Source: Mytilus trossulus
Taxonomy: Eukaryota
Length of the DNA stretch: 64,000 bases
Direction: 5' to 3'
Assembly (NCBI RefSeq): GCF_036588685.1
Contig: NC_086377.1
Coordinates: 80,414,001 to 80,478,000, forward strand
The notes under the pieces were generated by a model. The model saw only the letters and a list, made by a program, of their open reading frames with translations, was not told where the DNA came from and ran no database searches. Numbering within the stretch: position 1 is the stretch's first letter; each line of letters opens with the position of its first letter. Below, one piece after another: positions 391-64,000 of this stretch. Both the position numbers and the translations under genes were made by a program.

Positions 391-3300
391 TTATCCTGTT
401 TGAACCAACTCTACACCACTAAGTGTTTGATATTATCCTGTTTGATCTATCTCTACACTACTAAGTGTTCGATATTATCTTGTTTGATCCATCTCTACAC
501 TACCAAGTGTTCTATATTATCCTGTTTGATCTATCTCTACACTACTAAGTGTTCGATATTATCCTGTTTGATCCATCTCTACACTACTAAGTGTTCGATA
601 TTATCCTGTTTGATCCATCTCTACACTACTAAGTGTTCGATATTATCCTGTTTGATCCATCTCTACACTATCAAGTGTTCGATATTATCCTGTCTGAATC
701 AACTCTACACTACCAAGTGTTCTATATTATCCTGTTTTATCCATCTCTACACTACCAAGTGTTCGATATTATCCTGTCTGATCCAAATCTACACTACCAA
801 GTGTTCGATATTATCCTGTCTGAATCAACTCTACACTACCAAGTGTTCTATATTATCCTGTTTTATCCATCTCTACACTACCAAGTGTTCGATATTATCC
901 TGTCTGATCCATCTCTACACTACCAAGTGTTCGATATTATCCTGTTTGATCCAACTCTACACTACCAAGTGTTCGATATTATCCTGTTTGATCCATCACT
1001 ACATTACCGAGTGTTCGATATTATCCTGTATGAACCAACTCTACACTACTAAGTGTTCGATATTATCCTGTATGAACCAACTCTACACTACCAAGTGTTC
1101 GATATTATCCTGTTTGATCCATCTCTACACTATCAAGTGTTCGATATTATCCTGTTTGATCCATCTCTACACTAAGTGTTCGATATTATCATGTTTGATC
1201 CATCTCTACACTACCAAGTGTTCGATATTATCCTGTTTGAACCAAGTCTACACTATCAAGCGTTCGATATTATCCTGTTTGATCCATCTCTACACTACCA
1301 AGTGTTCGATATTATCCTGTTTGATCCATCTCTACACTACTAAGTGTTCTATATTATCCTGTTTGATCCATCTCTACACTACCAAGTGTTCGATATTATC
1401 CTGTTTGATCCAACTCTACACTACTAAGTGTTCGATATTATCCTGTTTGATCCATCTCTACACTACCAAGCGTTCGATATTATCCTGTTTGATCCATCTC
1501 TACACTACCAAGCGTTCGATATTATCCTGTTTGATCCATCTCTACACTACCAAGTGTTCGATATTATCCTGTTTGATCCATCTCTACACTACCAAGTGTT
1601 CGATATTATCCTGTTTGATCCAACTCTACACTACTAAGTGTTCGATATTATCCTGTTTGATCCATCTCTACACTACCAAGTGTTCGATATTATCCTGTTA
1701 GACCCAACTCTACACTACCAAGTATTCTATATTATCCTGTTTGATCCATCTCTACACTACCAAGTGTTCGATATTATCCTGTTTGATCCATCTCTACACT
1801 ACCAAGTGTTCGATATTATTCTGTTTGATCCAACTCTACACTACTATGTGTTCGATATTTTCCTGTTTGATCCATCTCTACACTACCAAGTGTTCGATAT
1901 TATCCTGTGTGATCCATCTCTACACTACAAAGTGTTCGATATTATCCTGTTAGACCCAACTCTACACTACCAAGTATTCTATATTATCCTGTTTGATCCA
2001 TCTCTACACTGCCAAGTGTTCGATATTATCCTGTTTGATCCATCTCTACACTACTAAGTGTTCGATATTATCCTGTTTGATCCATCTCTACACTACTAAG
2101 TGTTCGATATTATCCTGTTTGATCCATCTCTACACTACCAAGTGTTCGATATTATCCTGTTTGATCCAACTGTTTGATCCATCTCTACACTACCAAGTGC
2201 TCGATATTATCCTGTTTGATCCAACTCTACACTACCAAGTGTTCGATATTATCCTGTGTGATCCATCTCTACACTACTAAGTGTTCGATATTATCCTGTT
2301 TGATCCATCTCTACACTACTAAGTGTTCGATATTATCCTGTTTGATCCATCTCTACACTACCAAGTGTTCGATATTATCCTGTTTGATCCATCTCTACAC
2401 TACCAAGTGTTCAATATTATCCTGTTTGATCCATCTCTACACTACCAAGTGTTCGATATTATCCTGTCTGAACCAACTCTACACTACCAAGTGTTCGATA
2501 TTATCCTGTTTGAACCAACTCTACACTACCAAGTGTTCGATATTATCCTGTTTGATCCATCTCTACACTACCAAGTGTTCGATATCATCATGTCTGATCC
2601 ATCTCTACACTACCAAGTGTTCGAAATTATCCTGTGTGATCCATCTCTACACTACCAAGTGTTCGATATTATCCTGTCTGAACCATCTCTACACTACCAA
2701 GTGTTCGATATTATCCTGTTTGATCCATCTTTACACTACCAAGTGTTCGATATTATCCTGTTTGATCCAATTCTACACTACCAAGTGTTCGATATTATCC
2801 TGTTTGATTCAACTTTACACTACCAAGTGTTCGATATTATCCTGTTTGATCCATCTCTACACTACTTATCCTGTTTGATCCAACTCTACACTACCAAGTG
2901 TTCGATATTATCCTGTTTGATCCATCTCTACACTACTAAGTGTTCGATATTATCATGTTTGAACCATCTCTACACTACCAAGTCTTCGATATTATCCTGT
3001 TTGAACCAACTCTACACTACCAAGTGTTCGATATTATCCTGTTTGATCCAACTCTACACTACCAAGTGTTCAATATTATCCTGTTTGATCCATCTCTACA
3101 CTACTAAGCGTTCGATATTATTTTGTTTGAACCAATTCTTCACTACCAAGTGTTAGATATTATCCTGTTTGATCCAACTCTACACTACTAAGTGTTCGAT
3201 ATTATCCTGTTTGATCCAACTCTACACTAGCAAGTGTTCGATATTATCCTGTTTGATCCATCTCTACACAATCAAGTGTTCGATATTATCCTGTTTGATC

Positions 3301-4326
3301 CATCTCTACACAATCAAGTGTTCGATATTATCCTGTTTGATCCATCTCTACACTACCAAGTGTTCGATATTATCCTGTTTGATCCATCTCTACACTACTA
3401 AGTGTTCGATATTATCCTGTTTGATCCAACTCTACACTACTAAGTGTTCGATATTATCCTGTCTGAACCATCTCTACACTACCAAGTGTTCGATATTATC
3501 CTGTTTGATTCAACTCTACACTACCAAGTGTTCGATATTATCCTGTTTGATCCATCTCTACACTACCAAGTGTTCGATATTATCCTGTTTGATCCAACTC
3601 TACACTACCAAGTGTTCGATATTACCCTGTCTGATCCAACTCTACACCACCAAGTGTTCGATATTATCCTGTTTGATCCATCTCTACACTACCAAGTATT
3701 CGATATTATCCTGTTTGAACCAACTCTACACTACCAAGTGTTCTATATTACCCTGTTTGATCCATCTTTACACTACCAAGTGTTCGATATTATCCTGTTT
3801 GATCCATCTCTACACTACTAAGTGTTCGATATTATCCTGTTTGATCCATCTCTACACTACCAAGTGTTCGATATTATCCTGTTTGATCCATCTCTACACT
3901 ACTAAGTGTTCGATATTATCCTGTTTGATCCAACTCTACACTACTAAGTGTTTGATATTATCCTGTCTGAACCATCTCTACACTACCAAGTGTTCGATAT
4001 TATCCTGTTTGATTCAACTCTACACTACCAAGTGTTCGATATTATCCTGTTTGATCCATCTCTACACTACCAAGTGTTCGATATTATCCTGTTTGATCCA
4101 ACTCTACACTACCAAGTGTTCGATATTACCCTGTCTGATCCAACTAAACACCACCAAGTGTTCGATATTATCCTGTTTGATCCATCTCTACACTACCAAG
4201 TGTTCGATATTATCCTGTTTGAACCAACTCTACACTACCAAGTGTTCTATATTACCCTGTTTGATCCATCTTTACACTACCAAGTGTTCGATATTATCCT
4301 GTTTTGATCCATTTCTACACTAAAGT
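391..4326. repeat. 42-bp tandem repeat array (~93 units)
   Basis: Unit TTATCCTGTTTGATCCATCTCTACACTACCAAGTGTTCGATA repeated head-to-tail with point variants and rare indels. Confidence 0.98.
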
Positions 4327-12086: not shown

Positions 12087-12309
12087 TGAATTTTGTGAAA
12101 AACTAAGGCTTTTCTACCTCATGCATAGATTACCTTAGCTTTATTTGGCAAAACTTTTAGGAATTTTTGGTCCACAAAGCTCTTCAACTTCGTACTTTAT
12201 TTGGCCTTTTTAACTTTTTTCGATTCGAGCGTCACTGATGAGTCTTTTGTAGACGAAACGCGCGACTGGTGTATATACTAAATTTAGTCCTGGTATATAT
12301 GATGAGTTT
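12087..12309 (+). mobile_element. Interspersed repeat family C (GAGCGTCACTGATGAGTCTTTTGTAGACGAAACGCGCG), inserted in the first 60-bp satellite unit
   Basis: Related copies at ~54545-54890 (rev), 61710-61965 and 63010-63260. Here it splits GGGAAAGTGTATTATA | TATACAGTGTTGTCCGTC. Confidence 0.75.
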
Positions 12310-13949
12310 ATATACAGTGTTGTCCGTCTAACATATACGTCTGTGTCTCAATAACTGGGGGAAGTGTATTATACACTGTTGTCCGTCTAACATATACGTC
12401 TGTGTCTCGATAACTGGGGGGAAGTGTATTATACACTGTTGTCCGTCTAACATATACGTCTGTGTCTCGATAGCTGGGGGAAAGTGTATTATACACTGTT
12501 GTCCGTCTAACATATACGTCTGTGTCTCGATAACTGGGGGGAAGTGTATTATACACTGTTGTCCGTCTAACATATACGTCTGTGTCTCGATAACTGGGGG
12601 AAAGTGTATTATACACTGTTGTCCGTCTAACATATACGTCTGTGTCTCAATAGCTGGGGGGAAGTGTATTATACACTGTTGTCCGTCTAACATATACGTC
12701 TGTGTCTCGATAACTGGGGGGAAGTGTATTATACACTGTTGTCCGTCTAACATATACGTATGTGTCTCAATAGCTGGGGGGAAGTGTATTATACACTGTT
12801 GTCCGTCTAACATATACGTCTGTGTCTCAATAGCTGGGGGGAAGTGTATTATACACTGTTGTCCGTCTAACATATACGTATGTGTCTCAATAGCTGGGGG
12901 GAAGTGTATTATACACTGTTGTCCGTCTAACATATACGTCTGTGTCTCGATAGCTGGGGGAAAGTGTATTATACACTGTTGTCCGTCTAACATATACGTC
13001 TGTGTCTCGATAACTGGGGGGAAGTGTATTATACACTGTTGTCCGTCTAACATATACGTCTGTGTCTCGATAACTGGGGGAAAGTGTATTATACACTGTT
13101 GTCCGTCTAACATATACGTCTGTGTCTCGATAACTGGGAGAAGTGTATTAGACAGTGTTGTCCGTCTAACATATACGTCTGTGTCTCAATAGCTTGGGGA
13201 AAGTGTATTATACACTGTTGTCCGTCTAACATATACGTCTATGTCTCGATAACTGGGGGGAAGTGTATTATACACTGTTGTCCGTCTAACATATACGTCT
13301 GTGTCTCGATAACTGGGGAGAAGTGTATTAGACAGTGTTGTCCGTCTAACATATACGTCTGTGTCTCGATAACTGGGGGGAAGTGTATTATACACTGTTG
13401 TCCGTCTAACATATACGTCTGTGTTTCAATAGCTGGGGGAAGTGTATTATACACTGTTGTCCGTCTAACATATACGTCTGTGTCTCGATAGCTGGGGGGA
13501 AGTGTATTATACACTGTTGTCCGTCTAACATATACGTCTGTGTCTCAATAGCTGGGGGGAAGTGTATTATACACTGTTGTCCGTCTAACATATACGTCTG
13601 TGTCTCAATAGCTGGGGGGAAGTGTATTATACACTGTTGTCCGTCTAACATATACGTCTGTGTCTCGATAACTGGGGGGAAGTGTATTATACACTGTTGT
13701 CCGTCTTACATATACGTCTGTGTCTCGATAACTGGGGGGAAGTGTATTATACACTGTTGTCCGTCTAACATATACGTCTGTGTCTCGATAGCTGGGGGAA
13801 AGTGTATTAGACACTGTTGTCCGTCTAACATATACGTCTGTGTCTCGATAGCTGGGGGGAAGTGTATTATAGACTGTTGTCCGTCTAACATATACGTCTG
13901 TGTCTCAATAGCTGGGGGAGGTGTATTAGACAGTGTTGTCCGTCTAACT
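12310..13949. repeat. 60-bp satellite array, left arm
   Basis: Unit GAAGTGTATTATACACTGTTGTCCGTCTAACATATACGTCTGTGTCTCGATAACTGGGGG in tandem. Confidence 0.98.
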
Positions 13950-14816
13950 TGTCGTAATTTCTACTTCTTGCTATGTTTTGATATAGTTATAAAGCCAGCA
14001 AATACGAATACTCATAAAACTAGTAAATACACGGGATAATAAATAAATACGGACGTCAAAACTGTTGTCTGTTCTCTCTCGGCATCATTGGTAGCGTGAA
14101 TAAATGATCAATAGTAAAAATGATACTTTTATTAAACAGCCGATGTGTTTCCATACAAGTACAATATTCCAACAATAATATATAATAAACATACGGGACG
14201 AAACTACTAAAATAATAATCTTTCTCATGTATTTTCGTACGGGTCAACTGGGATTATCTATATACACATTTCAAAGACAATATAAATAAAATGCAAGGCA
14301 TACAGCTAATGCGCTGCTTCTTACCTCTAGGACCCCCCGGGATGAGCCTTGCTGCAAGCCAAACGTAAACACAGCAAAGACTAACTAACGTGACGTTGCA
14401 CTGGTATTTATTTCAAAATACCGGAAGTAAATCTTCTAAGCAGGAAGAAAAACATAACGTAAAACGCTTACATAAAATATAGTAGTCCTCGACTCAAAAT
14501 GCTTATAATAATACAATCTTATGAATAATCAAATCTAGACATATTAATTCTTCCAGTTAAGAGCTCGCAAATGAACACTTTTGGGTTCACGCTTAAAATA
14601 TTGACCCAACGGTAACGTTCTGAACAATACATGACAAAGTTGCGCCATATACGACGTTATCGATATAACTAATAACATAAAGTAAAACGTACGTTAATTA
14701 CTCATTCGATATACTAAACACTAGAAATAACTTCTGTCAACTTATGTAAACTCTCTTATTATAATAGATAACAATATTCTTTTACTTGGAAATGACCAAA
14801 ACACACATTTACAACA
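13950..14816 (-). repeat. 3' LTR (867 bp)
   Basis: TG...CA termini; identical by eye to 18141-19007 (the ORF track gives identical 63-aa ORFs at 14056 and 18247); minus-strand AATAAA near 14128. Confidence 0.95.
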
Positions 14817-14830
14817 CTGCCCCTCCCCCA
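14817..14830 (-). other. Polypurine tract (PPT)
   Basis: Minus strand reads TGGGGGAGGGGCAG immediately before the 3' LTR, preceded by the TTCGAGGACGAA motif often seen before Gypsy PPTs. Confidence 0.85.
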
Positions 14831-16001
14831 GAATACATTTCGTCCTCGAAATATGGGCTTGGCAATTCTGACAATACGTCTAAAAATTCTTTTCACAATA
14901 TTTCTATGTACATATTACTCTATCATACAAATAAAACAATTTTTACTTATCTCCAATTTGTTAAAAACAAACAAATATTTAAGCTATCTTTAAACTTAAA
15001 CAAAAATCAACAAACTACTGCGCCTGTTAATGTCCTAACAAAAACAATATCTGCGATAACAAACTAATGCGCCTGTTAATACTTAAACGGCAAAACAAGT
15101 TTATAACTATAAGTTTCTTCCACATATAAATATCTTCTTTTATACTTATATAACAGTAAAGTGTCACGAAAACACCTAGTTCTATTTTTTATACACTCAG
15201 TTACAGCACTAATATACAGTTACTACATTAAAAGTTCATTCCAAAATTCTTCATTCTATCAGACGCTGGAATTAAAAACATCATGAAGCTCAACTCCATA
15301 TAAACACCCGACTAACCATAAGCCGACAGATGTCCTACCAAGTACTATACCGCCGTCAAGGGTACCACCGTGTATAAATATATACACAACCACGATACCG
15401 ATCCACCATACAAACATAAGTAGAAAAATTAGTACAAGGTACAACTAATAAAAAAAATGGTCATCAGTATTCCCCTATAAATATCTAAAAATGGTGTAGA
15501 CTATAGCTCAGCATACCCATGGTGTCACCTAAATGTATATTGCAATCTAGACTAACCATTAGCCTTAACTTATTCTCGCACCAAAACAAAAATGGCACCT
15601 AAAGTATCCCAACTGCCAATATACACCCACCGAAAGCAGCTTCCCACCAAAATAGTATTAAACAATCTTTTTTTACTGCAACAACAGCAACAATTCAATA
15701 GGATCATCAAATTCCAGATTCTGATAAAAAATCACCTGTTTACTGAAAATCTCAAAAACAATTTCAATACCACAATATACTTTCAAAAATCTAAAATACC
15801 GTATACTCTACATATTTGTGCTTAATGTACTCAGTGTATAAACTAATATTACAATTCTTCTCAATAAACCAATAAATCACTTTTTACATCAATGACAAAA
15901 AACATCACACAAGTTTCATATCTACATTATAAAAAATCCGAATCTACACAAAAACATATTCTCATATTTGTCCAGTAGGCTTATCTGCTATATAGTCCTA
16001 A

Positions 16002-17531
16002 CTATTTCTGATAACCCTGGCTTATAAATCCAAACTGCGGGTTCCCTCCGAAACTATTCATATTTTCTGGTTTCCCTCTTTTTCCTCTTGAGAAAGGACA
16101 ATCTCTACTGTAATGTCCCTCTTGGTGGCATGAGTAACATGTATTTACTCTGTTACTGTTGTTGGTATTAAATTGGTCTTTCTTCCTAACATTATGTCTA
16201 TTTAATGGACCAAAATTTTCTCTTTCTTGCTTCTCAGTTTTAAACAGATCTTTTATCTCATTTAAATCCTGCTTTATGTCTTCAACATCCATTTTTAACT
16301 CCTTTTTCAAATTGTCTAAGCCCATTTTAAATTCTGCATGAGTGACAAATTGGGTTGGATTCTCCCTCCTACATACCTCGAAGTCTTCTGTTTTCTCTTG
16401 TGTTATACAGTTTGCACCAGTATTTACGTGTCTGACATTAAAGTTTGTATTTATATTTTCTCTACAACACTTGTGCCATGTGACTATATTAATTGCATCC
16501 TGCAATGTTGCTGGCTTCTGTATGAGGATCTCATAAGCTAGTGACTGGTCTGGCAGACCCTTAATAAAGTGTTCTGTTTTGAAACGGTTCAGTAAACCCA
16601 AGTCATTTACATCAGGGTATGCTTTACCTACAAGTCTCTCCACACGAGATGCATATTCGTGTATGCTTTCTTTGTGGTCCTGTTTAATAAACTGCAAGTT
16701 GGTCCTATAAGTTTCAGGTAAAATATGATCCCCAAATCTCTGTGACATAGCCTCGTGTATATATTCTATGTCTCTGTGCAAAGAAACAGGAAGTTCGTTT
16801 ACGTATACCAAGGCTTCATCTCTAAGACTATTTAAAATTAGCTCCTCTACTTGTCTGTCACTGGACCAATTGAACCTACTACTCAATAAACTAAACTGTG
16901 TCCAGAAGGCCTTGCAATCTCCCTTACCATTAAATATTGGGCTTCTAGGTTTTGGTTCTTCCCTTTGTAGTTGCTGAACATGACTACTTTCTCTTAAATG
17001 ATGTGTACTAACTGGACGTGGTATATAAGTGTTTTCAGTACTTGGACCAGCTTCTAACTGTTGGGTCACTGATACCTGGTTATTTTGTTCAGTTGTGGTC
17101 ATGCTATTTTGACTGAAATTCTGCGTATTGGTATTATTTTTAGCAACATGGCTACCCCTTATAATTACTAACTGAGCTATATTTTCCTGATTTAGCTTAA
17201 CTTGCGTGCTCATCTCAGAAACTTGCGTGCTCATCTCAGAAACTTTCGTCTTGAGTTCAGAAAATCTATCATTTTGATTTTTTAATTGTCTCTGAATGTC
17301 CGTTAGAATAGCAATAATATTGTTATCATTCATATTCGTCCTAGTGTTCTGCACAGGCGATTTTATTGGGCTTACTACGGGGCTGGAGGTAGATAAATTA
17401 ACATCATCTTCTATATCCAAATCTATCAAATTACAGGGCTCATCAGGTCCGCATTGTGAAATAATTATATTCTTCATACTTTCCCCCCTTTCAAAATTTG
17501 GAGCTGGGATTTTTCTATTCCTAAGATCCAT
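16002..17531 (-). CDS. gag: Retrotransposon Gag protein (509 aa from ATG MDLRNRK)
   Basis: Capsid-type motifs PIFNGKGD..AFWTQF, SLRDEAL, SQRFG, QDHKESIHEYASRVERL..KAYP, FIKGL and PATLQDAI; CCHC zinc knuckle CYSCHQEGHYSRDC; uninterrupted frame. Confidence 0.93.
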   Translation of the reverse strand: MDLRNRKIPAPNFERGESMKNIIISQCGPDEPCNLIDLDIEDDVNLSTSSPVVSPIKSPVQNTRTNMNDNNIIAILTDIQRQLKNQNDRFSELKTKVSEMSTQVSEMSTQVKLNQENIAQLVIIRGSHVAKNNTNTQNFSQNSMTTTEQNNQVSVTQQLEAGPSTENTYIPRPVSTHHLRESSHVQQLQREEPKPRSPIFNGKGDCKAFWTQFSLLSSRFNWSSDRQVEELILNSLRDEALVYVNELPVSLHRDIEYIHEAMSQRFGDHILPETYRTNLQFIKQDHKESIHEYASRVERLVGKAYPDVNDLGLLNRFKTEHFIKGLPDQSLAYEILIQKPATLQDAINIVTWHKCCRENINTNFNVRHVNTGANCITQEKTEDFEVCRRENPTQFVTHAEFKMGLDNLKKELKMDVEDIKQDLNEIKDLFKTEKQERENFGPLNRHNVRKKDQFNTNNSNRVNTCYSCHQEGHYSRDCPFSRGKRGKPENMNSFGGNPQFGFISQGYQK

Positions 17532-17554
17532 GTATAAAACAAACAATAATATGG

Positions 17555-17980
17555 CAATAGAAGCTAACTGCACCTCTATTTTTCTAATAAATAATTATTT
17601 GGAAGCTAAATGCACCTCCGTTATATTTTTTCTTTTTAGGAAGCTAAATGCACCTCCTTAATATATATATATTTTTTTTCTTTATAGGAAGCTAAATGCA
17701 CCTCCTTAATATATTGGGTTTTTTTTCTTTATAGGAAGCTAAATGCACCTCCTTAATATATATATTTTTTTCTTTATAGGAAGCTAAATGCACCTCCTTA
17801 ATATATAATATATTTTTTTCTTTATAGGAAGCTAAATGCACCTCCTTAATATATAATATATTTTTTTCTTTATAGGAAGCTAAATGCACCTCCTTAAAAA
17901 TATTCTCTTTCTTTATAGGAAGCTAGATGCACCTCCTTAATATACTTTTTTTTTTTAAATCAGAAGCTAAATGCACTTCT
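17555..17980. repeat. ~45-bp tandem repeat in the retroelement 5' leader
   Basis: Core (ATAG)GAAGCTAAATGCACCTCCTTAATATA repeated ~10 times with A/T-run spacers. Confidence 0.9.
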
Positions 17981-18126
17981 GTATTTTCCAAAATAAGCTA
18001 TTTATCACAGTATAATATATAGAGCTAAATGCACTCCATACACAATATATATCACTTATTGTGTTCCGTACAAATTAATATTTCTAAAAATAGACGTGCC
18101 AAATTCCTTGAAAACGTGAGAACAAA

Positions 18127-18139
18127 ACCGCTGCCACCA
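18127..18139 (-). other. Primer binding site, tRNA-Leu type
   Basis: Minus strand TGGTGGCAGCGGT one base after the 5' LTR; complementary to ...ACCGCTGCCA+CCA, the 3' end of metazoan tRNA-Leu (AAG/TAG type). Confidence 0.85.
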
Positions 18140-18140
18140 T

Positions 18141-19007
18141 TGTCGTAATTTCTACTTCTTGCTATGTTTTGATATAGTTATAAAGCCAGCAAATACGAAT
18201 ACTCATAAAACTAGTAAATACACGGGATAATAAATAAATACGGACGTCAAAACTGTTGTCTGTTCTCTCTCGGCATCATTGGTAGCGTGAATAAATGATC
18301 AATAGTAAAAATGATACTTTTATTAAACAGCCGATGTGTTTCCATACAAGTACAATATTCCAACAATAATATATAATAAACATACGGGACGAAACTACTA
18401 AAATAATAATCTTTCTCATGTATTTTCGTACGGGTCAACTGGGATTATCTATATACACATTTCAAAGACAATATAAATAAAATGCAAGGCATACAGCTAA
18501 TGCGCTGCTTCTTACCTCTAGGACCCCCCGGGATGAGCCTTGCTGCAAGCCAAACGTAAACACAGCAAAGACTAACTAACGTGACGTTGCACTGGTATTT
18601 ATTTCAAAATACCGGAAGTAAATCTTCTAAGCAGGAAGAAAAACATAACGTAAAACGCTTACATAAAATATAGTAGTCCTCGACTCAAAATGCTTATAAT
18701 AATACAATCTTATGAATAATCAAATCTAGACATATTAATTCTTCCAGTTAAGAGCTCGCAAATGAACACTTTTGGGTTCACGCTTAAAATATTGACCCAA
18801 CGGTAACGTTCTGAACAATACATGACAAAGTTGCGCCATATACGACGTTATCGATATAACTAATAACATAAAGTAAAACGTACGTTAATTACTCATTCGA
18901 TATACTAAACACTAGAAATAACTTCTGTCAACTTATGTAAACTCTCTTATTATAATAGATAACAATATTCTTTTACTTGGAAATGACCAAAACACACATT
19001 TACAACA
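18141..19007 (-). repeat. 5' LTR (867 bp)
   Basis: Direct repeat of 13950-14816 with TG...CA termini. Confidence 0.95.
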
Positions 19008-22000
19008 AACATATACGTCTGTGTCTCGATAACTGGGGGGAAGTGTATTATACACTGTTGTCCGTCTAACATATACGTCTGTGTCTCGATAACTGGGGGG
19101 AAGTGTATTATACACTGTTGTCCGTCTAACATATACGTCTGTGTCTCGATAACTGGGGGAAAGTGTATTATACACTGTTGTCCGTCTAACATATACGTCT
19201 GTGTCTCAATAGCTGGGGGGAAGTGTATTATACACTGTTGTCCGTCTAACATATACGTCTGTGTCTCGATAACTGGGGGGAAGTGTATTATACACTGTTG
19301 TCCGTCTAACATATACGTCTGTGTCTCGATAACTGGGGGGAAGTGTATTATACACTGTTGTCCGTCTAACATATACGTCTGTGTCTCGATAACTGGGGGA
19401 AAGTGTATTATACACTGTTGTCCGTCTAACATATACGTCTGTGTCTCAATAGCTGGGGGGAAGTGTATTATACACTGTTGTCCGTCTAACATATACGTAT
19501 GTGTCTCGATAACTGGGGGGAAGTGTATTATACACTGTTGTCCGTCTAACATATACGTATGTGTCTCAATAGCTGGGGGGAAGTGTATTATACACTGTTG
19601 TCCGTCTAACATATACGTCTGTGTCTCAATAACTGGGGGAAAGTGTATTATACACTGTTGTCCGTCTAACATATACGTCTGTGTCTCAATAGCTGGGGGG
19701 AAGTGTATTATACACTGTTGTCCGTCTAACATATACGTCTGTGTCTCGATAACTGGGGGGAAGTGTATTATACACTGTTGTCCGTCTAACATATACGTAT
19801 GTGTCTCAATAACTGGGGGGAAGTGTATTATACACTGTTGTCCGTCTAACATATACGTCTGTGTCTCGATAGCTGGGGGAAAGTGTATTATACACTGTTG
19901 TCCGTCTAACATATACGTCTGTGTCTCAATAGCTGGGGGGAAGTGTATTATACACTGTTGTCCGTCTAACATATACGTCTGTGTCTCGTTAGCTGGGGGA
20001 AAGTGTATTATAGACTGTTGTCCGTCTAACATATACGTCTGTGTCTCAATAGCTGGGGGAAAGTGTATTATACACTGTTGTCCGTCTAACATATACGTCT
20101 GTGTCTCAATAGCTGGGGGAGGTGTATTAGACAGTGTTGTCCGTCTAACATATACGTCTGTGTCTCGATAACTGGGGGAAGTGTATTATACACTGTTGTC
20201 CGTCTAACATATACGTCTGTGTCTCGATAACTGGGGGAAGTGTATTAGACAGTGTTGTCCGTCTAACATATACGTATGTGTCTCGATAGCTGGGGAAAGT
20301 GTATTATACACTGTTGTCCGTCTAACATATACGTCTGTGTCTCGATAGCTGGGGGAAAGTGTATTATACATTGTTGTCCGTCTAACATATACGTATGTGT
20401 CTCGATAGCTGGGGGAAGTGTATTATACACTGTTGTCCGTCTAACATATACGTCTGTGTATCAATAGCTGGGGGAGGTGTATGAGACAGTGTTGTCCGTC
20501 TAACATATACGTCTGTGTCTCGATAACTGGGGGGAAGTGTATTATACACTGTTGTCCGTCTAACATATACGTCTGTGTCTCGATAACTGGGGGGAAGTGT
20601 ATTATACACTGTTGTCCGTCTAACAACATATACGTCTGTGTCTCGATAACTGGGGGGAAGTGTATTATACACTGTTGTCCGTCTAACATATACGTCTGTG
20701 TCGCAATAGCTGGGGGAGGTGTATTATACACTGTTGTCCGTCTAACATATACGTCTGTGTCTCGATAACTGGGGGAAAGTGTATTATACACTGTTGTCCG
20801 TCTAACATATACGTCTGTGTCTCGATAACTGGGGAGAAGTGTATTATACACTGTTGTCCGTCTAACATATACGTCTGTGTCGCAATAGCTGGGGGAGGTG
20901 TATTATACAGTGTTGTCCGTCTAACATATACGTATGTGTCTCGATAGCTGGGGAAAGTGTATTATACACTGTTGTCCGTCTAACATATACGTCTGTGTCT
21001 CGATAGCTGGGGGAAAGTGTATTATACATTGTTGTCCGTCTAACATATACGTATGTGTCTCGATAGCTGGGGGAAGTGTATTATACACTGTTGTCCGTCT
21101 AACATATACGTCTGTGTATCAATAGCTGGGGGAGGTGTATGAGACAGTGTTGTCCGTCTAACATATACGTCTGTGTCTCGATAACTGGGGGGAAGTGTAT
21201 TATACACTGTTGTCCGTCTAACATATACGTCTGTGTCTCGATAACTGGGGGGAAGTGTATTATACACTGTTGTCCGTCTAACAACATATACGTCTGTGTC
21301 TCGATAACTGGGGGGAAGTGTATTATACACTGTTGTCCGTCTAACATATACGTCTGTGTCGCAATAGCTGGGGGAGGTGTATTATACACTGTTGTCCGTC
21401 TAACATATACGTCTGTGTCTCGATAACTGGGGGAAAGTGTATTATACACTGTTGTCCGTCTAACATATACGTCTGTGTCTCGATAACTGGGGAGAAGTGT
21501 ATTATACACTGTTGTCCGTCTAACATATACGTCTGTGTCTCGATAACTGGGGGAAAGTGTATTATACACTGTTGTCCGTCTAACATATACGTCTGTGTCT
21601 CGATAACTGGGGGGAAGTGTATTATACACTGTTGTCCGTCTAACATATACGTCTGTGTCTCGATAACTGGGGGGAAGTGTATTATACACTGTTGTCCGTC
21701 TAACATATACGTCTGTGTCTCAATAGCTGGGGGAGGTGTATTAGACAGTGTTGTCCGTCTAACATTTACGTCTGTGTCTCGATAACTGGGGGAGGTGTAT
21801 TATACACTGTTGTCCGTCTAACATATACGTCTGTGTCTCGATAACTGGGGGAAAGTGTATTATACACTGTTGTCCGTCTAACATATACGTCTGTGTCTCG
21901 ATAACTGGGGGGAAGTGTATTATACACTGTTGTCTGTCTAACATATACGTCTGTGTCTCGATAACTGGGGGGGAAGTGTATTATACACTGTTGTCCGTCT

Positions 22001-25000
22001 AACATATACGTCTGTGTCTCAATAGCTGGGGGAGGTGTATCAGACAGTGTTGTCCGTCTAACATATACGTCTGTGTCTCGATAACTGGGGGGAAGTGTAT
22101 TATACACTGTTGTCCGTCTAACATATACGTCTGTGTCTCAATAGCTGGATGGAAGTGTATTATACATTGTTGTCCGTCTAACATATACGTCTGTGTCTCG
22201 ATAACTGGGGGGAAGTGTATTATACACTGTTGTCCGTCTAACATATACGTCTGTGTCTCGATAACTGGGGGAAAGTGTATTATAGACTGTTGTCCGTCTA
22301 ACATAAACGTCTGTGTCTCGATAACTGGGGGGAAGTGTATTATACACTGTTGTCCGTCTAACATATACGTCTGTGTCTCGATAACTGGGGGAAAGTGTAT
22401 TAGACACTGTTGTCCGTCTAACATATACGTCTGTGTCTCGATAGCTGGGGGAAGTGTATTATACACTGTTGTCCGTCTAACATATATGTCTGTGTCTCAA
22501 TAGCTGGGGGAAAGTGTATTATACACTGTTGTCCGTCTAACATATACGTCTGTGTCTCAATAGCTGGGGGAGGTGTATTAGACAGTGTTGTCCGTCTAAC
22601 ATATACGTCTGTGTCTCGATAACTGGGGGGAAGTGTATTAGACAGTGTTGTCCGTCTAACATATACGTCTGTGTCTCGATAGCTTGGGGGAAGTGTATTA
22701 TACACTGTTGTCCGTCTAACATATACGTCTGTGTCTCGATAACTGGGGGGAAGTGTATTATAGACTGTTGTCCGTCTAACATATACGTCTGTGTCTCGAT
22801 AACTGGGGGGAAGTGTATTATACACTGTTGTCCGTCTAACATATACGTCTGTGTCTCGATAACTGGGGGGAAGTGTATTATAGACTGTTGTCCGTCTAAC
22901 ATATACGTCTGTGTCTCGATAGCTTGGGGGAAGTGTATTATACACTGTTGTCCGTCTAACATATACGTCTGTGTCTCGATAACTGGGGGAAAGTGTATTA
23001 TACGCTGTTGTCCGTCTAACATATACGTCTGTGTCTCGATAACTGGGGGGAAGTGTATTATACACTGTTGTCCGTCTAACATATACGTCTGTGTCTCAAT
23101 AGCTGGGGGGAAGTGTATTAAACACTGTTGTCCGTCTAACATATACGTCTGTGTCTCGATAACTGGGGGGAAGTGTATTATACACTGTTGTCCGTCTAAC
23201 ATATACGTCTGTGTCTCGATAGCTGGGGGAAAGTGTATTAGACAGTGTTGTCCGTCTAACATATACGTCTGTGTCTCGATAGCTGGGGGAAGTGTATTAT
23301 ACACTGTTGTCCGTCTAACATATACGTCTGTGTCTCAATAGCTGGGGGGAAGTGTATTATACACTGTTGACTTGTCCGTCTAACATTTACGTCTGTGTCT
23401 CAATAGCTGGGGGAGGTGTATTAGACAGTGTTGTCCGTCTAACATATACGTCTGTGTCTCAATAGCTGGGGGGAAGTGTATTATACACTGTTGTCCGTCT
23501 AACATATAAGTCTGTGTCTCAATAGCTGGGGGAGGTGTATTAGAAACTGTTGTCCGTCTAACATATACGTCTGTGTCTCGATAACTGGGGGAAGTGTATT
23601 ATACACTGTTGTCCGTCTAACATATACGTCTGTGTCTCAATAGCTGGGGGAGGTGTATTAGACACTGTTGTCCGTCTAACATATACGTCTGAGTCTCGAT
23701 AACTGGGGAAGTGTATTATACACTGTTGTCCGTCTAACATATACGTCTGTGTCTCGATTACTGGGAGGAAGTGTATTATACACTGTTGTCCGTCTAACAT
23801 ATACGTCTGTGTCTCAATAGCTGGGGGAGGTGTATTAGACATTGTTGTCCGTCTAACATATACGTCTGTGTCTCGATAGCTGGGGGGAAGTGTATTATAC
23901 ACTGTTGTCCGTCTAACATATACGTCTGTGTCTCGATAACTGGGGGGAAGTGTATTATACACTGTTGTCCGTCTAACATATACGTCTGTGTCTCGATAAC
24001 TGGGGGAAAGTGTATTATAGACTGTTGTCCGTCTAACATATACGTCTGTGTCTCGATAACTGGGGGGAAGTGTATTATACACTGTTGTCCGTCTAACATA
24101 TACGTCTGTGTCTCGATAGCTGGGGGGAAGTGTATTATAGACTGTTGTCCGTCTAACATATACGTCTGTGTCTCGATAACTGGGGGGAAGTGTATTATAC
24201 ACTGTTGTCCGTCTAACATATACGTCTGTGTCTCGATAACTGGGGGAAAGTGTATTAGACACTGTTGTCCGTCTAACATATACGTCTGTGTCTCGATAAC
24301 TGGGGGAAAGTGTATTAGACACTGTTGTCCGTCTAACATATACGTCTGTGTCTCGATAGCTGGGGGGAAGTGTATTATACACTGTTGTCCGTCTAACATA
24401 TACGTCTGTGTCTCGATAGCTGGGGGAAAGTGTATTATACGCTGTTGTCCGTCTAACATATACGTCTGTGTCTCGATAGCTGGGGGAAAGTGTATTATAC
24501 ACTGTTGTCCGTCTAACATATACGTCTGTGTCTCGATAGCTGGGGGAAAGTGTATTATACACTGTTGTCCGTCTAACATATACGTCTGTGTCTCGATAGC
24601 TGGGGGAAAGTGTATTATACACTGTTGTCCGTCTAACATATACGTCTGTGTCTCGATAGCTGGGGGAAAGTGTATTATACGCTGTTGTCCGTCTAACATA
24701 TACGTCTGTGTCTCGATAACTGGGGGAAAGTGTATTATACACTGTTGTCCGTCTAACATATACGTCTGTGTCTCGATAGCTGGGGGAAAGTGTATTAGAC
24801 ACTGTTGTCCGTCTAACATATACGTCTGTGTCTCGATAACTGGGGGAAGTGTATTATAGACTGTTGTCCGTCTAACAACATATACGTCTGTGTCTCGTTA
24901 GCTGGGGGAAGTGTATTATAGACTGTTGTCCGTCTAACAACATATACGTCTGTGTCTCGATAACTGGGGGAAGTGTATTATAGACTGTTGTCCGTCTAAC

Positions 25001-25090
25001 AACATATACGTCTGTGTCTCGATAACTGGGGGAAGTGTATTATAGACTGTTGTCCGTCTAACATATACGTCTGTGTCTCGATAACTGGGG
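19008..25090. repeat. 60-bp satellite array, right arm (~100 units)
   Basis: The same 60-bp unit resumes in register (AACATATACGTCTG...) directly after the LTR. Confidence 0.98.
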
Positions 25091-25304: not shown

Positions 25305-27092
25305 AAACTAGAGGCTCTCAGAGCCTGTCGCTCACCTTGGTCTATGTGCATATTAAACAATGGAAACAGATAAATTCATAACAAAATTGTGTTTTGATGA
25401 TTGTTATGTGTTTGTACATCATACTTTACTGAAAATTCTAGTTGCTACAATTATCTCTATCTATAATGAACTTGGCCCGGTAATCACAGTGGAAAATATT
25501 TTCAAAAAATCTACAAAATTTTTTGAAAAACGTAAAAAAATTGACTATAAAGGACAGTAACTCCTAAAGGGGTCAACTAACCATATCATTCGTGTTGACC
25601 TTTTTGTAAATCTTACTCTGCTGAACATTGTTGCTGTTTACAGTTTATCTCTATCTATAATAATATTCAAGATAATAACCAAAAACATCAAAATTTCAAT
25701 AAAATTACCAATTCAGGGGCAGCAACCAAACAACGCATTGTTCGATTCATCTGAAATTTTCAGGGCAGTAAATGACATGATAAGCAATTTTACCCCATGT
25801 CAGATTTGCTCTAAAAGCTTTGATTTTTGAGTTGCAAAAATATATAAGCCAAAAACTGCATTTTACCCCTATGTTCTATTTTTAGCCATGACGGCCATCT
25901 TGAATAGTTGACCGGGTCACTGACACAATTTTTAAACAAGATACCCCAATGATGATTGTAGCTTAGTTAGTTTGGTTTAATTTGGCCGAGTAGTTTCAGA
26001 GGAGAAGATTTTTGTAAAAGATAACTAAGATTTTCTTAAAATGGTTAAAAATTGGCTATAAAGGGCAATAACTCCTAAGGGTCAACTGACCATTTCGGTC
26101 ATGTGACTTATTTGTAAATCTTACTTTACTGAACATTATTGCTGTTTACTGTTTATCTTTATCTAAAATATTATTCAAGAAAATAACCAAAAACAGTAAA
26201 ATTTCCTTAAAATTACAAATTCAGAGGCAGCAACCCATCAACGGGGCGTTCGATTCACTTGAAAATTATAGGGCAGATAGATCTTGACCTGATAAACAAT
26301 TTAACACAGTCATTTATGCTCTTTATGCTTTGGTTTTCAAGTTATAAGCCAAAAACTGCATTTTAACCCATTGTTCTATTTTCGCCATTGCGGCCATCTT
26401 GGTTAGTTGACCGGGTCACCGGACACAATTTTTAATCTAACTACCCAAATGATGATTGAGGCCAAGTTTGGTTTAATTTGGCCAAGTAGTGTCAGAGGAG
26501 AAGATTTTTGTAAAAGATTACTAAGATATACGAAAAATGGTTAAAAATTGGCTATACAGGGCAGTAACTCCTAAAGGGGTTAATTGACCATATCATTCGT
26601 GTGACTTATTTGTAAATCTTACTTTGCTGAACATTATTACTGTTAACAGTTCATCTCTATCTATAATAATATTCAAGATAATAACCAAAAACAGCAAAGT
26701 TTCCTTAAAATTACCAATTCAGGGGTAGCAACCCAACAATGGGTTGTTAGATTCATCTGAAATGTTCAGGGCAGATAGATCTTGATCTGATAAACAATTT
26801 TACCTCGTCAGATTTGCTCTAAATGCTTTGGTTTTTGTGTTATAAGCCAAAAACTGTATTTTACCCCTATGTTCTATTTTTAGTTGTGGCGGCCATCTTG
26901 ATTGGTTGACCGGGTCACCGGACACAATTTTTAAACTAGATACCCCCATTATGATTGTGGCCAAGTTTGATTTAATTTGGCCAAGTAGTTTCAGAGGAGA
27001 AGATTTTTGTAAAAGTTAACGACGACGGACGACGACGGACGACGACGGACGCCGGACGCAAAGTGATGAGAAAAGCTCACTCGGCCCTTTGG
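25305..27092 (+). mobile_element. Non-autonomous Helentron/HINE-like element with three ~500-bp internal tandem repeats and a GACG(G)AC microsatellite
   Basis: Starts AAACTAGAGGCTCTCAGAGCCTGTCGCTCACC (hairpin-like). Core units start at ~25538, 26049 and 26544. Ends (GACGACGGAC)n...AAGTGATGAGAAAAGCTCAC. A degenerate inverted copy lies at ~45290-46275 and an end fragment at 25220-25292. Confidence 0.7.
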
Positions 27093-42014: not shown

Positions 42015-45000
42015 TTAAACACTAAATGATAGTCCTGCAAATTGTCCAGTACTAATGTTCGTTTCATTACCACCAACTGACGAGTCCTTGAACTGTAAAG
42101 TAACCCCAGATTGCGGTTCTGTGACAGATTCTTTACAGTTTGTTCCATAATAAGTTTGATTAGACATCCCATTCATTTGAATTGTGTAATCCCTCCTAGA
42201 ATTAATATGAATTGGTTTACAAAAGTTCACTTCCATAACTTTATCGTAATTTGGACCATAGATCAATCGTTGATCGTGGCGAATTGTTTCTTCATTTGAA
42301 TCATTCAGTATTTGTATGCTTATGTTGACGTAGTTACTGACATTTCCGGTGGTATTATGATATCCGGAAGATTGCGCAACGTAAGGAAGAAAAATATGTA
42401 CACCTTTAAGCCAAATATCATTATCCGAGAAAAACATTATAGAATGTATTCCTCTTGATGTCATAGGTTGGCTTATCTGTTCATATCGATTGACTTTAAA
42501 GGTCTCTCGTTGCGTAACGGGAATTCTTTTGCTGTTACAAAAGATTTTTGATTCTTCACCGAAATGTGACTGATAAATGGATACCGTCTCGTCATTTGTA
42601 AGTAAACCAGACACAGCGACCTTTTTTGAAAACAATTTCATATCAACATCTTGGAATCTAATCAAGTACAAATTATTCCCCAGAACGTCGCGGATGTTTC
42701 CACCAGAAGGCTCTAAATTTGCAAGCGTACATTGATGTTCACCCCATTTTATGATAAAATGGCAGATGTCTGTTTCTGAGCAGTTGAGATAACCTGAATT
42801 CAAAATTAGCTGTAAACAATCCTTGGAAAGACTTAATGCATATTCGGACAGCAGACATTCCTTTGTATTAATCTCAATATAGTCAAGACTTTCCCGCTGA
42901 AGATCTGATAGATTGTGTTGGTATGCGGTTTGTAAAGCCTTGGTTGCATGCTCTGATTGTGCCGTTTGTTTAAGAACTGTCTCACATCCTCTTTTAACTG
43001 CAGCTAACATATACTTATCAGCAGCATACAGTATCTCCTTCACATTGTCGTTTGTAATTGTAATTTGATCGCAATAAATATATCTGTAAGATAATTTTTA
43101 AATCAGATTTATTCCATGGCACATACAAGTGTAACATATTGAAAGTTGGAAATAGGTGTTATTTGAAAGAAATTGGAGTCAATCTAATATATAATCTTGA
43201 TAACAGCTAAACAAGAATAAGGAGATATGGCATGATCGCCAAAGATACAACATTTACCGTAGACGAAATGGAGTGGACGTTATGATACAGAATACAATAT
43301 TATTATTTGAATAGGAAAGTCGCATGGCTAAATGTAAAACAATACAAACGGCATGATTTCTTACTAAACAATGAACAAAACCAAATATGACAAACAGAAA
43401 CCGACGACTACTGATCATAAAGTTGAAACTTTAAAAAAAAATATATATCAAGAAATATCACAATGGAATGTACACTAAATTGGCAATTTGCACAAAAAGC
43501 TATGATACATGTACGAAACAAATGAGAAAAATATATCTAGGCTATTGAACAAAGTAGACAAAAAAACCCAGTATGATTAAGGTTCCAAAACTCTATTAGA
43601 AAATCCTGTACATTTGATTAATACATGAAATCAAAACAGTATTTAATAATAGTGCAGAAATATATTCGTGGAAATATTTATTTTGCACAGTCATTTACAG
43701 CGAGTATGAAGCTATAGGTAGAGCATAGCATCGATTCATCATCCAATGAAAACACTCATATCAATTGCCTGTTTATTATTTATAATATGTATGTTTCATA
43801 CAAACAGGTTTACATAGACAACTTTGCTAATGAATATTCATTTCTTATAGTTTTTGATTGAATTAAAAAATCTTTTTTTTACAATAAATTAGAAGCGGAG
43901 TAACGTTTTACGTTTTATTTAAATATTTACGCCGGGAATAGGCAGTTTAGTAAATTAATGTGTTTTTGGTGTATTCCTCATGCATGAAACTTTGTTATGC
44001 TCTAGGTGTCTTTTCTTCCTATATATACACATAGTTTTTAAAACTCAAATCTTTTATATTCACACAGAAAAGAACAACTAGCATACTACTTAATATCATT
44101 CACGATTGTGGACCTTTAATTTAGTTAAAAAAGCAACGAAAAAAACCCCAACAAACCAGCAAACAACTGCAGTTTTGAATTGCAAATATTGCAGAGTTTA
44201 TAAACATCCACTTGGTCCGTAAACATTACCTTACTTTTTAGTTTTAAATAAAATAATTCAGACACGAAGAACAATTTTTATGTCTCTACTTCATTTAGAT
44301 TTAATCTGACCTCGATTGAATGATCAGGTCATATGTACTTTTGGACACCTCCCAATCTTTTTTACCTGTTCGGGTGTATTGTAAACAAATGTGTATGTGT
44401 CAAAACTTTATAACTATTACAATTCGATCAAATGTGTTGTACTGAAAATGCATGAAATACGTGCAAATGGACATAAAGCAAACAATCAACAAATGCATTA
44501 ATTCTTGCACGATTCACCGAGAATAGAACGGAACCATTTAGAATGACATTTTACATGTAAAGTTTCAATCAGTTTACGATTGATTTATGCTTGAATTCTT
44601 TTAATAGTTCATAATTTCACTTCAGTACTTTCAAAAAAATAATTACAAACGCTTTCAAGGTGCATTGCAACAACTTTATATCAATCAAAACAATACAACA
44701 ACAAAATACATGAGCATGATGGGATAAAAACACAAAGATGTCACCAAATAAATGTTTACACATTCTGTAGCACTTCCCCGAAAATACACATGAAAAGCAA
44801 ATATATGTAATCGGGATATGACAGGTTTTTTTTTATCGATTGTACCATTGTAAAGTACATACATATAACTGGATTTATAAATGAACATGATCAATAAGCA
44901 ATTGATTGAAATAAAATTTGCAAATCAAACCTTCAACATGCTTGTGAATTAGCTTATAATTATCACTAAATTTAATTTAGATTGAAAACTAATTTTTAAA

Positions 45001-46627
45001 CTGAATTGTAAAACTAGTTTTCCAATGTTTATGTTCTGATTGGTTCTCTGCTTAACTATGGACTCTACCCAAAGGCTTTTTGTACCTTACCTGATAATGA
45101 TTTCATGGTTGAGCTAACAAAGAAGCTTACCAAAGAATCTACATGTACATGTAGCTTCATACTCGTTGGAATCTGCTGGAACTAAGAAATTAGATATGAA
45201 AACAGTGTTATACCACAAATAAATATCTAAGCTACTGGATTTTTAAATTTGACATTTTTTGTAAAAACAGGTTAATAATGATGCTATAATCTAGAGTTTT
45301 ATGTAATTACTTGGCGTCCGTTGTCCGTCGTCTGTCTTCGTCGTCCTCGTTCGTTGACTTTAAGAAACTTTAAGAAAAAATGTTCTCCTTTGAAACCACT
45401 AGGCCACATTTATCCAATCTTCGCAACAATTATCATTCGGGTCTCTATTTAAAAAAGTATATTCAATGACCTTGTCTGCCAACAAACATGACCGACACGG
45501 CTAAAACATAACATAGGGGTAAAATGCAGTTTTTGGCTTAAATTTCTGAAACCAAAGCATTGAGAACGAAAATGTTTATCAGGTTAATTCTATCTGCCCT
45601 GAAAGTTTCAGACGAATCAGAAAACCCGTTGTTGGGTTGCTAACCCTGAATTGGTACTTTACAGATATTTTGCAGTTTTTGGTTATTATCTTGTTCATTA
45701 TTAAAAATAGAGATAAATGTAAACACCAATAATGTTCAGCAAAGTACGATCTACGAATAAAACAACTCACCAAAATTGTCAATGGAATCTTTTAGAAGTT
45801 ATTGCCATTTATACATGTTATAGTCAATTTTTCGTAAATTTTGTTATCTTTTCAAACATTTTCCTCTCTTAGTCTACTGGGCCAAATAGAATTAAACTTA
45901 AGGCATCTTGATTGAAAAATGTATCCGATGACCCTGTCATCCAACCAAGATGACCACAGTGGCTGAAAATAGAACAAACGGGGTTTACTATAGAAGTCTA
46001 AGGAAAAACTGTCAAAAAAAACCCAATTTCAAATGAACACAACCTGAGAACTAATTTAGATAATGATTAGGGGTCTTCAGTAACTATTATGAGACTACAA
46101 TGAAGTAAATTAAATCCGCGTTAATTCACCTTCGGGGTTAAATTAAACCAAACTTGGCCACAGTCATTATCAGGCTATCTTATACTATCAATTATGGGTT
46201 TTATCTTATTTTACATGATTTCCAAAACAACACTATATACAGGTAATCGACAAAGGTTCTTCAGAGTCTCTAGGCTGAACTCCAAATTATAAATTAGTCA
46301 AATGAAGAAATATCTCTATGCTATTGAACAATTACTGCTTTGCTAAAGACAACCATTTTGTGGAGATACTCACTTCAGAATATCTCGAAAGGTATTTTCT
46401 TCAATATCAGGTATTGTTATTTCTCCTTTTTCTGGCAGAGACCCCTCAAACATGGTATGGAAGACGGCACTTCGGCTCGACAACATATACTTGTGTGCTT
46501 TAATAGGTATTATATCATGGCCTACTCTAAGTGTGACGTCACACATGATTTCGTTCTGTAGCATAAACATCATACATTCAGGCAAAGGTTTATTATCCCG
46601 CCAGTCTGCTGAATACTGTACATCCAT
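42015..46627 (-). CDS. BTBD3/6: BTB/POZ domain protein, BTBD3/BTBD6-like (BTB-BACK-PHR), paralog 1, 440 aa
   Basis: Exon 46374-46627 (CDVTLRVG..IKAHKYMLSSRSAVFHTMFEG; donor gtgagt, phase 2) plus exon 42015-43083 (YIYCD..ILYAADKYML, BACK SETDIC..WG..C, LIRF, PHR end NETNISTGQFAGLSF). The ATG directly follows an AG acceptor. Confidence 0.92.
45290..46275 (-). mobile_element. Degenerate Helentron/HINE-like copy in the BTB paralog 1 intron
   Basis: Reverse complement of the 25305-27092 core (GGGGTAAAATGCAGTTTTTGGCTTA; TTGGGTTGCTAACCCTGAATTGG), GTCCGTC microsatellite, terminus AGAGTCTCTAG. Confidence 0.65.
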
Positions 46628-61686: not shown

Positions 61687-62089
61687 GTAAGTAAATGTTT
61701 TTATTAGCCGTAATTATATTTGTATAAATTTCCTGTATACAAAACTTTAAATTTTTTGAAAAACTAAGGATTTTCTTATCCCAGGCATAAATTACCTTAG
61801 CCGTATTTGGCACAACTTTTTGGAATTTTGGATCCTCAATGCTCTTCAACTTTGTACTTGTTTGGGTTTATAAATATTTTTGATTTGAGCGTCACTGATG
61901 AGTCTTATGTAGACGAAACGCGCGTCTGGTGTACTAAATTATAATCCTGGTACCTTTGAAAACTATTTATGTATGAAATTAAATTGTAATTTCGTAATTT
62001 TCATTACTGATATATAACATGTATAAAAACCCAGCGCACTTCTTACAAAAGATTCAACAGCAAAGTTGAATAGGACCGAAAATTTCAAC

Positions 62090-62720: not shown

Positions 62721-64000
62721 TTGTAATTAATTTATAATTTATTCCAAAATAATGATAATTCATATCAGCACAGAAGTGCTGACTGCTCGGTTGGTGATGT
62801 TTTTTTTTCTGACGTTGGCTATATCTAAAATTTCCATAGCTGCGGAATAACATAAAATTGAGAACTGAAACGGGGAATGTGTCAACTCAACCAATAGCTT
62901 AAGGCCAACATATTTGTATTCAAACAGAATTAAAAAGAATTAAATAAAACTCATGCTTAAGTATATTGTAAAAAATGAGATCTCATTTCCGAGTGGGCAC
63001 ATTGATAGTTATATTTATAAATTAACTGTTTACAAAACTTTTGAATTTTTAAATAATAAGGCTTTTCGAGCTCAGGAATATAATACCTCAGCTGTATTTG
63101 GCAAAACTTTTAGGAATTTTGGTTTTCAATGCTCCTCAACTTCGTACTTTATTTGGCCTTTTTTAACTTTTTTGGATTCGAGCGTCACTGATGAGTCTTT
63201 TGTAGACGAAACGCGCGTCTGGCGATAATACAAAATTTAATCCTGGTATCTATGATGTGTTTATGTAGATGAATGAGTCAAACAGAATCATATTTTTGTA
63301 GGGAAAAAAAAACTTTAATTTAGTATTCAATTTGCTTCCAACCATCAATAAGTTAATTAGCATTTTAATAGTAAACACGATTGACAAAAATCCCAGTCAA
63401 CGACTAACTTACATCTTTTCTTTAAGCCACAATTAAACTTTAAGAATACAAACAAATTATGTGGTGTACAAATACCAATTGTTCGTTTTATTCTACAATC
63501 AGCAAACTTTTATACATATAACATGTACACGAATATTTTTATACTTTATTTGTTCTTGAAATATACAGCCTCGTGTTATCCCGCCGTATTGAGCAAACGG
63601 TAAAGGGGAACTTCTAACAGTATAATTTTTTATCCTCTTCGCAGTCTGCGTTAAAACTAGAACAATCAGAGACACCTATTTGAATTGACACGCATATATC
63701 TTTCTCATCCTCGCTTGTCGTCCTGTATGTTTCTAAAGCTCGCACACATATTTTTAAAATTTTAAAACATATATTTTATGACAATATACATATATTGTAT
63801 ATATTTAATACATGTACTAGGAATTTCCACCGCGAGTAGCTTTGAAAAATTGTTTCGATGTTTCCATGTGAACACAAAAACAGTTTGTTAAAATGTATAA
63901 ACCGTACATGTATGTTTTACAGATATATTTATACTGACAGCAGCAGCAATATATCACACGAGAATGTTGAGAATGTCCTTTACGCTGCCGAGAAGTACAT

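Follow-up and report, generated by a model that had tools for sequence, protein, structure and literature searches.

The 64,000-nucleotide stretch of Mytilus trossulus DNA analyzed here, hereafter the window (assembly GCF_036588685.1, contig NC_086377.1, forward-strand positions 80,414,001 to 80,478,000), carries at 13950–19007 on its minus strand a 5,058-bp Ty3/gypsy-type long terminal repeat (LTR) retroelement with a gag gene and no recognizable pol. The element is real, young, and multi-copy; taken as a whole, the evidence describes a family and not a one-off deletion. The reading we favor, at a probability of roughly 0.82, is that the element is a recently inserted member of a multi-copy gag-only Ty3/gypsy family of Mytilus; this family likely originated through loss of the whole of pol from a gypsy element with two open reading frames (ORFs), and likely moves in particles containing the Gag-Pol of a related autonomous element.

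A multi-copy family without pol

The top homologues of the window Gag are Mytilus gene models. A C-terminal motif is shared by 23 of 123 Gags with a zinc knuckle near the end, a count taken after removal of the Pol set, four near-duplicates, one knuckle-repeat protein, and those proteins that lack a knuckle at the end. These 23 comprise 17 M. edulis models, which sit on 17 contigs, each of a different length, four M. galloprovincialis models, one Logan protein, and the window copy; nine near-full-length family Gags have a mean identity of 97.8%. The xN-stop form, which closes 61 of the 100 other lineage Gags, is absent from all 23; 16 more of the 100 have a similar motif shortly ahead of the stop. 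We take the xN-stop ending to be a -1 frameshift junction to pol. The window gag contains no in-phase slippery heptamer after codon 438, past the knuckle.

Contigs of two runs from other samples, X4 and X1, the latter perhaps an RNA run, were compared with the element over 13950–17590, and cover 30/30 bins of that interval. One X1 contig of 941 nt extends past the gag stop into this tail and shows 20 differences (about 2% divergence); another, of 477 nt, joins the tail to the LTR, and one LTR end (the start) is flanked by other sequence. The median depth ratio of tail to gag is 0.98 in X4 and 0.94 in X1, and LTR/gag depth is 6.7 and 4.7 in the two runs; these ratios are consistent with copies that mostly lack pol, together with solo LTRs or relatives that share the LTR. 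X4 also shows a 651-nt skip inside gag.

The non-coding tail downstream of gag was searched for pol in several ways. Pfam returned no family in any of the six frames at E up to 1. The best tblastn match among 60 related Pol-containing proteins, taken from the nearest lineage, scored 23.9 bits in antisense, within the 21.9–26.9 bits given by 20 shuffles. A hidden Markov model built from 33 full-length Pols gave no significant match to the tail or to any other part of the window (best E about 1), while the gag control in this test gave a strong match. Since the tail is T-rich (39% T) like the LTR and gag is A-rich (38% A), the tail seems to resemble a native 3' non-coding region more than it does decayed pol. 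An integrase C-terminus match to the tail (E=0.036) was dismissed, as it lies on the wrong strand and inside the shuffled range. One segment of the tail (15414–15657) is present in a diverged, indel-rich variant and has no significant fold (z=-1.0); it may be common to the helper, to a sister family, or to some other element.

A preliminary sequence-only reading of this DNA had proposed an active gag-only family lacking protease, reverse transcriptase, RNase H, and integrase, and had named a lone copy with full-length kin, or degraded pol in 14817–16001, as findings that would speak against it. Neither was found, and the recurring gag-tail junction, the even tail/gag depth, and the shared C-terminus uphold a pol-less, multi-copy family. 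The word "active" holds in part: the family is young and multi-copy, and present activity is suggested by LTR identity only. In the annotation of Mytilus assemblies, members of the family appear as host "CCHC-type" genes, inflating gene sets.

Structure, age, and insertion site

Coordinates are collected in Table 1. The LTR pair aligns with 0/867 mismatches and its divergence has an upper bound of ~0.35%, which bears out both the identity noted earlier by eye and the recent insertion read from it; the polypurine tract (PPT) claimed at the same time was likewise found (14829–14820). The primer-binding site (PBS) presumably matches tRNA-Leu; there is no tRNA gene in the window, and a literature search on the PBS motif found nothing relevant among the matches listed. 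The window holds one copy of the element.

The target-site duplication (TSD) is 4 bp long with one mismatch. The mismatched base is identical to the single nucleotide that separates the 5' LTR from the PBS, and may therefore be a cDNA end base retained at integration. A satellite variant as the source of the mismatch was ruled out, as 0/126 other array monomers have that base. A 3-bp duplication occurs at the position of the insertion in 5/127 array monomers (20613, 21271, 24865, 24927, 24989), probably through slippage.

Table 1. Features of the gag-only element and its insertion site (window coordinates)
Feature	Position	Strand	Remarks
Left target-site copy AACT	13946..13949	+	One mismatch to right copy
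3' LTR	13950..14816	-	867 bp
3' tail, non-coding, 1,185 bp	14817..16001	-	T-rich, without pol homology, common to other copies
PPT, G-rich	14820..14829	-	3 nt short of 3' LTR
Tail segment with raised contig depth	15414..15657	-	Both runs; 15414-15535 at 2-3.5x neighbors
gag ORF	16002..17531	-	509 aa, uninterrupted; only long non-repeat ORF in element
CCHC zinc knuckle (nucleocapsid, NC), residues 463-479	16095..16145	-	Pfam zf-CCHC E=6e-5
Capsid (CA) domain, residues 196-358	16458..16946	-	Retrotrans_gag/PNMA matches; Foldseek PNMA2, Arc, MOAP1
11 RNA stem-loops in 5' leader	17555..18042	-	7-bp stem, near-invariant 7-nt loop
PBS, TGG-starting	18128..18139	-	1 nt past 5' LTR
5' LTR	18141..19007	-	867 bp, TG...CA, identical to 3' LTR
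Right target-site copy AACA	19008..19011	+	Equals normal 60-bp array sequence
Host 60-bp tandem array split by element	12311..25090	.	Tandem Repeats Finder; 27 units left, 101 right

The Gag protein

The earlier description of an intact Gag with capsid and CCHC knuckle agrees with the uninterrupted ORF, the Pfam knuckle match, and the capsid fold matches. The protein is laid out as a predicted long helix (70–126), the capsid domain, a second helix (398–438), and the zinc knuckle. Beyond the knuckle match (Table 1), Pfam gave Retrotrans_gag at E=5e-4, under its curated cut-off. The AlphaFold model has a low mean predicted local distance difference test (pLDDT) score of 54.7 overall, and is confident for the capsid and the later helix only; over residues 200–360, 10-residue blocks mostly score 74–91, with one block at 59. 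The top Foldseek match of the model is the PNMA2 capsid (E=9e-4), followed by the Arc and MOAP1 capsid domains. A protein atlas look-up returned generic Gag/zf-CCHC clusters only. The predicted long helix contains a 21-bp (7-residue) tandem duplication at 17199–17245, where family Gags vary in steps of 7 or 14 residues.

A leader hairpin array

The 5' leader of the element contains an array of 11 stem-loops, a feature absent from the sequence-only reading; units 3–9 are near-identical in a ~48-bp tandem, and these seven central units were amplified recently. For the 609-nt leader, the predicted fold is better than that of 20/20 shuffles (z=-4.3), and in a sliding-window fold of the whole element 1/68 windows fell below z=-2.5, located in the leader. 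The 7-pair stem is paired in 48/49 cells, with two-sided changes at three pairs, and its covariation score was reached by 0/500 shuffles; slid controls pair at 31–61%. G-U pairs on the sense strand favor RNA structure over a DNA palindrome. The junction of stem and loop holds a short self-complementary UGCA. Rfam gave no matches over the element at E up to 1.

Our best guess, by analogy, is that these hairpins are a candidate packaging or dimerization signal, because the cis signals for packaging and trans-mobilization in Ty1 and Ty3 lie near the RNA ends (PMC4974528). Translational control and enhancer repeats remain open as alternatives. A literature search found no paper on gypsy packaging hairpins, and the covarying array supplies a compact and concrete candidate for a signal of this kind in gypsy elements.

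Origin and candidate helpers

The element is, by sequence, a Ty3/gypsy derivative: its Gag is of gypsy type, and the pol of its nearest relatives has the order protease, reverse transcriptase, RNase H, and integrase (PR-RT-RH-IN), followed in related Pols by an integrase C-terminal domain. In a capsid-domain tree of 26 rows, two proteins with ties to pol fall inside the Mytilus clade that holds the gag-only family (support 99/97; inner branches are weak). One, P0008, is a pol-linked M. californianus Gag with an LN-type ending; the other, P0024, is an M. coruscus gene model that includes gag, protease, and Pol pieces, and is the one match returned by a search for longer homologous proteins. The capsid of the window element is 83–84% identical to both. 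These pol-linked Gags are likely representatives of the helpers, to judge from their sequences. A further Gag with an LN ending (P0012) and a complete PR-RT-RH-IN protein (P0074) both lie on 6,314-nt Logan contigs and probably belong to one autonomous two-ORF element. No related loci were found in the metagenomes, viral contigs, and prokaryote genomes scanned. Several family Gags appear to be mosaic, P0007 and P0011 with helper-type N-termini and P0009 with a helper-type middle, a pattern to be expected from template switching within shared particles. Of the earlier proposal that Pol is borrowed from a helper, the need for Pol in trans stands, given the absence of pol; the partner is narrowed to a candidate lineage only.

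The mechanism that we propose would begin with the loss of the whole of pol from a two-ORF gypsy ancestor. The LTR would drive a full-length RNA, from which Gag alone would be made, since the lineage's frameshift-type gag ending has been lost. This RNA would be captured, probably via the leader hairpins, in mixed particles made of its own and/or helper Gag together with helper Gag-Pol; reverse transcription would be primed from a host tRNA, and helper integrase would insert the cDNA with a 4-bp duplication. The element's own Gag is probably useful without being strictly required in cis. Complementation of a donor by a helper is established for Ty1 and Ty3 (PMC4974528).

Is Gag under selection?

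The evidence for constraint on Gag is mixed. Capsid variants shared by at least two copies avoid the columns conserved among 146 distant Gags (5/61 vs 26/101 elsewhere, p=0.004), and 1/17 knuckle columns is variable among 16 family Gags. The X1 contigs have no gaps over gag and 16 gap letters in the tail, and none of the 12 indels listed (12 of 18) lies in gag. The window copy itself has 32 private Gag substitutions, 10 of them in CA; three of these 10 (206, 335, 354) fall on conserved columns, against an expected share of 61/162, a neutral-like proportion at about chance level. Twelve gag substitutions relative to the runs, a selected subset of 174 rows, comprise nine non-synonymous and three synonymous changes and are also neutral-like.

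The X1 contig that encodes the capsid differs at 3/612 positions, vs 17/660 in the tail (p=0.003). All three differences are non-synonymous, with no synonymous change where 3.2 were expected (P=0.04), and this absence points to recent shared ancestry, not to selection on the protein. Had the three differences arisen after insertion, ~8.5 LTR differences would be predicted (P=2e-4); since there are none, the differences probably predate the insertion, and the donor probably carried them and yet moved. In that case, either the changes are tolerated or Gag can be supplied in trans. The sequence-only reading had taken the intact Gag as a sign of selection for self-packaging. That view is sustained for the older shared variants, which avoid conserved sites, but not for the copy's own changes; the shared-variant signal may also have been inherited from an autonomous gag via recombination.

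Alternative explanations

These results bear most closely on the possibility that Gag is a passenger, in which helper Gag does all the packaging of the RNA, and the ORF appears intact only through the youth of the family and its renewal by recombination with autonomous gag. The chance-level share of private CA changes on conserved columns, the three X1 capsid differences with which the donor probably moved, the mosaic Gags, and the 651-nt skip in X4 would all fit such a passenger, but a sample of three is small and those changes may be tolerated; moreover, the shared variants avoid conserved columns, the knuckle is nearly invariant, and gag is free of the gaps seen in the tail. On balance a passenger Gag seems possible though doubtful. 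It is also conceivable, although we consider it unlikely, that the family is a long-lived satellite parasite of gypsy, which discarded pol and the frameshift, kept its capsid compatible by recombination with helper gag, and multiplied a packaging stem-loop to 11 so that its RNA out-competes that of the helper for Gag-Pol particles. If so, a defective-interfering strategy would have become established as a genomic family in several Mytilus species, and the repeat array would reveal which signal a whole marine gypsy lineage uses for packaging. Alternatively, Gag could be kept for an action on other elements or on the host, as a restriction factor or in development, and not for packaging its own RNA. 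There are precedents in the Bik-1/2 families of zebrafish and in Ty1 p22, a dominant-negative restriction factor, and the fold is akin to PNMA2 and Arc, though this kinship is common to all gypsy capsids; the copies, however, appear dispersed and divergent, not fixed at one locus, and the window copy sits in a tandem array, leaving such a role with little probability.

Two further explanations concern the copy itself. Its insertion could be older than it appears, with LTR identity produced by gene conversion or assembly collapse in the tandem array. The mismatched TSD, an internal region 0.5–2.6% off the X1 contigs, and LTR letters that are rare in both runs would be in keeping with greater age; against this, the 509-aa ORF is uninterrupted, the cis signals are intact, the mismatched base is the one that retention of a cDNA end would give, and a distinct subfamily or species could account for the differences from the runs. 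We consider an older insertion very improbable. That the copy is a dead-on-arrival product of a one-off internal deletion in an ordinary gypsy element is largely refuted. Internal deletions of retroelements are common and the window holds a single copy, but 22 further proteins share its gag ending, the gag-tail junction recurs about 2% diverged in another sample with tail/gag depth of about 1, and there is no pol remnant.

Several points nonetheless weigh against the preferred reading of a trans-mobilized gag-only family. Summed contig depth is not copy number; the absence of pol covers the window and the X1 and X4 contigs, with no contig across the whole stretch, and the contig picture leaves out 54 loose ends. 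The protein census is biased, since pol-bearing elements tend to be masked in gene annotation. The comparison covered four of 24 listed runs; besides X1 and X4, raw reads of runs X22 and X23 yielded 0 and 3 partial reads, and as runs without the element they provide no test. The 11 sequences used to score the hairpin structure are also those from which it was derived, and no helper with the same LTR and PBS was seen at the DNA level in the scanned loci.

Other features of the window

The window also contains two paralogous BTB-BACK-PHR (BTBD1/2/3/6-like) coding stretches on the minus strand (42018–43097 and 52722–53819; 73% DNA identity) and, at 391–4322, about 94 units of a 42-bp tandem repeat. 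A 498-bp three-unit repeat at 25536–27020, which ends in a GAC-rich microsatellite and has a diverged inverted copy at 45306–45982, is probably a repeat-carrying non-autonomous DNA element. A dispersed 220–270-bp repeat family is represented at 12087–12314, 54530–54799, 61711–61959, and 63000–63267; one of its copies abuts the 60-bp array where that array starts.

Comparison with known systems

Within Mytilus, one comparison is with the autonomous two-ORF Ty3/gypsy elements (P0008 and P0024; Pol P0074/P0075), which have the same Gag layout and the similar capsid described above. Such autonomous elements of Mytilus and other aquatic animals carry or adjoin PR-RT-RH-IN and mostly have the xN gag ending, whereas a different tail of 30 residues and the lack of pol mark the window family. 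Mollusc gypsy elements include the named clades C-clade and MolGy (PMC6238403). The main text of that mollusc LTR survey does not contain the term "non-autonomous," and no description of a mollusc gag-only gypsy family was found among the literature listed; Repbase and the supplements of PMC6238403, which were unsearched, may hold the family. Troyka elements are described as short non-autonomous LTR elements of marine invertebrates, including Mytilus, with CG...CG ends and a 3-bp TSD (PMC12440569); the TG...CA termini of the mussel element exclude membership.

Among gag-only elements, the plant TR-GAG group is described as having LTRs, PBS, PPT, and a single gag ORF without pol (Chaparro et al. 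2015, PMC4350172). The mussel element shares these traits together with multiple copies and presumed mobilization in trans, and gypsy-type Gag is found among TR-GAG. It differs in its animal host, its leader hairpin array, its identifiable candidate helper lineage, its size (5,058 bp vs under 4 kb, in a TR-GAG search that allowed 1–6 kb), and its TSD (4 bp and imperfect vs 5 bp); a 2026 paper argues that TR-GAG size classes blur (PMC13570524). The expectation of the sequence-only reading that such elements are found mainly in plants was not borne out, as zebrafish Bik-1 and Bik-2 (BHIKHARI) are reported as young, polymorphic gag-only LTR families with intact Gag, without pol or env, and with many solo LTRs (337/393 for Bik-2; PMC12067270). 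Like them, the mussel family is a young animal LTR family with intact gag and no pol, in need of a Pol partner (PMC12067270). The Bik families are vertebrate endogenous retroviruses (ERVs) with a shown developmental role, whereas the mussel element is a bivalve Ty3/gypsy derivative. Gag-only elements have also succeeded in the MaLR of mammals, which are derived from ERV-L and rely on the reverse transcriptase of another element. Drosophila HeT-A, too, is gag-only and uses another element's reverse transcriptase, but is non-LTR and telomeric (PMC6581046). The mussel family resembles both in this success and differs from them in derivation and form.

The mussel family is therefore of a kind already known from plants and zebrafish, and is a new case in a bivalve Ty3/gypsy lineage, to which it extends the range of gag-only LTR families. 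Why TR-GAG elements keep Gag is a question raised for the plant elements (PMC4350172), and the close helper candidates in Mytilus make the corresponding question testable in an animal.

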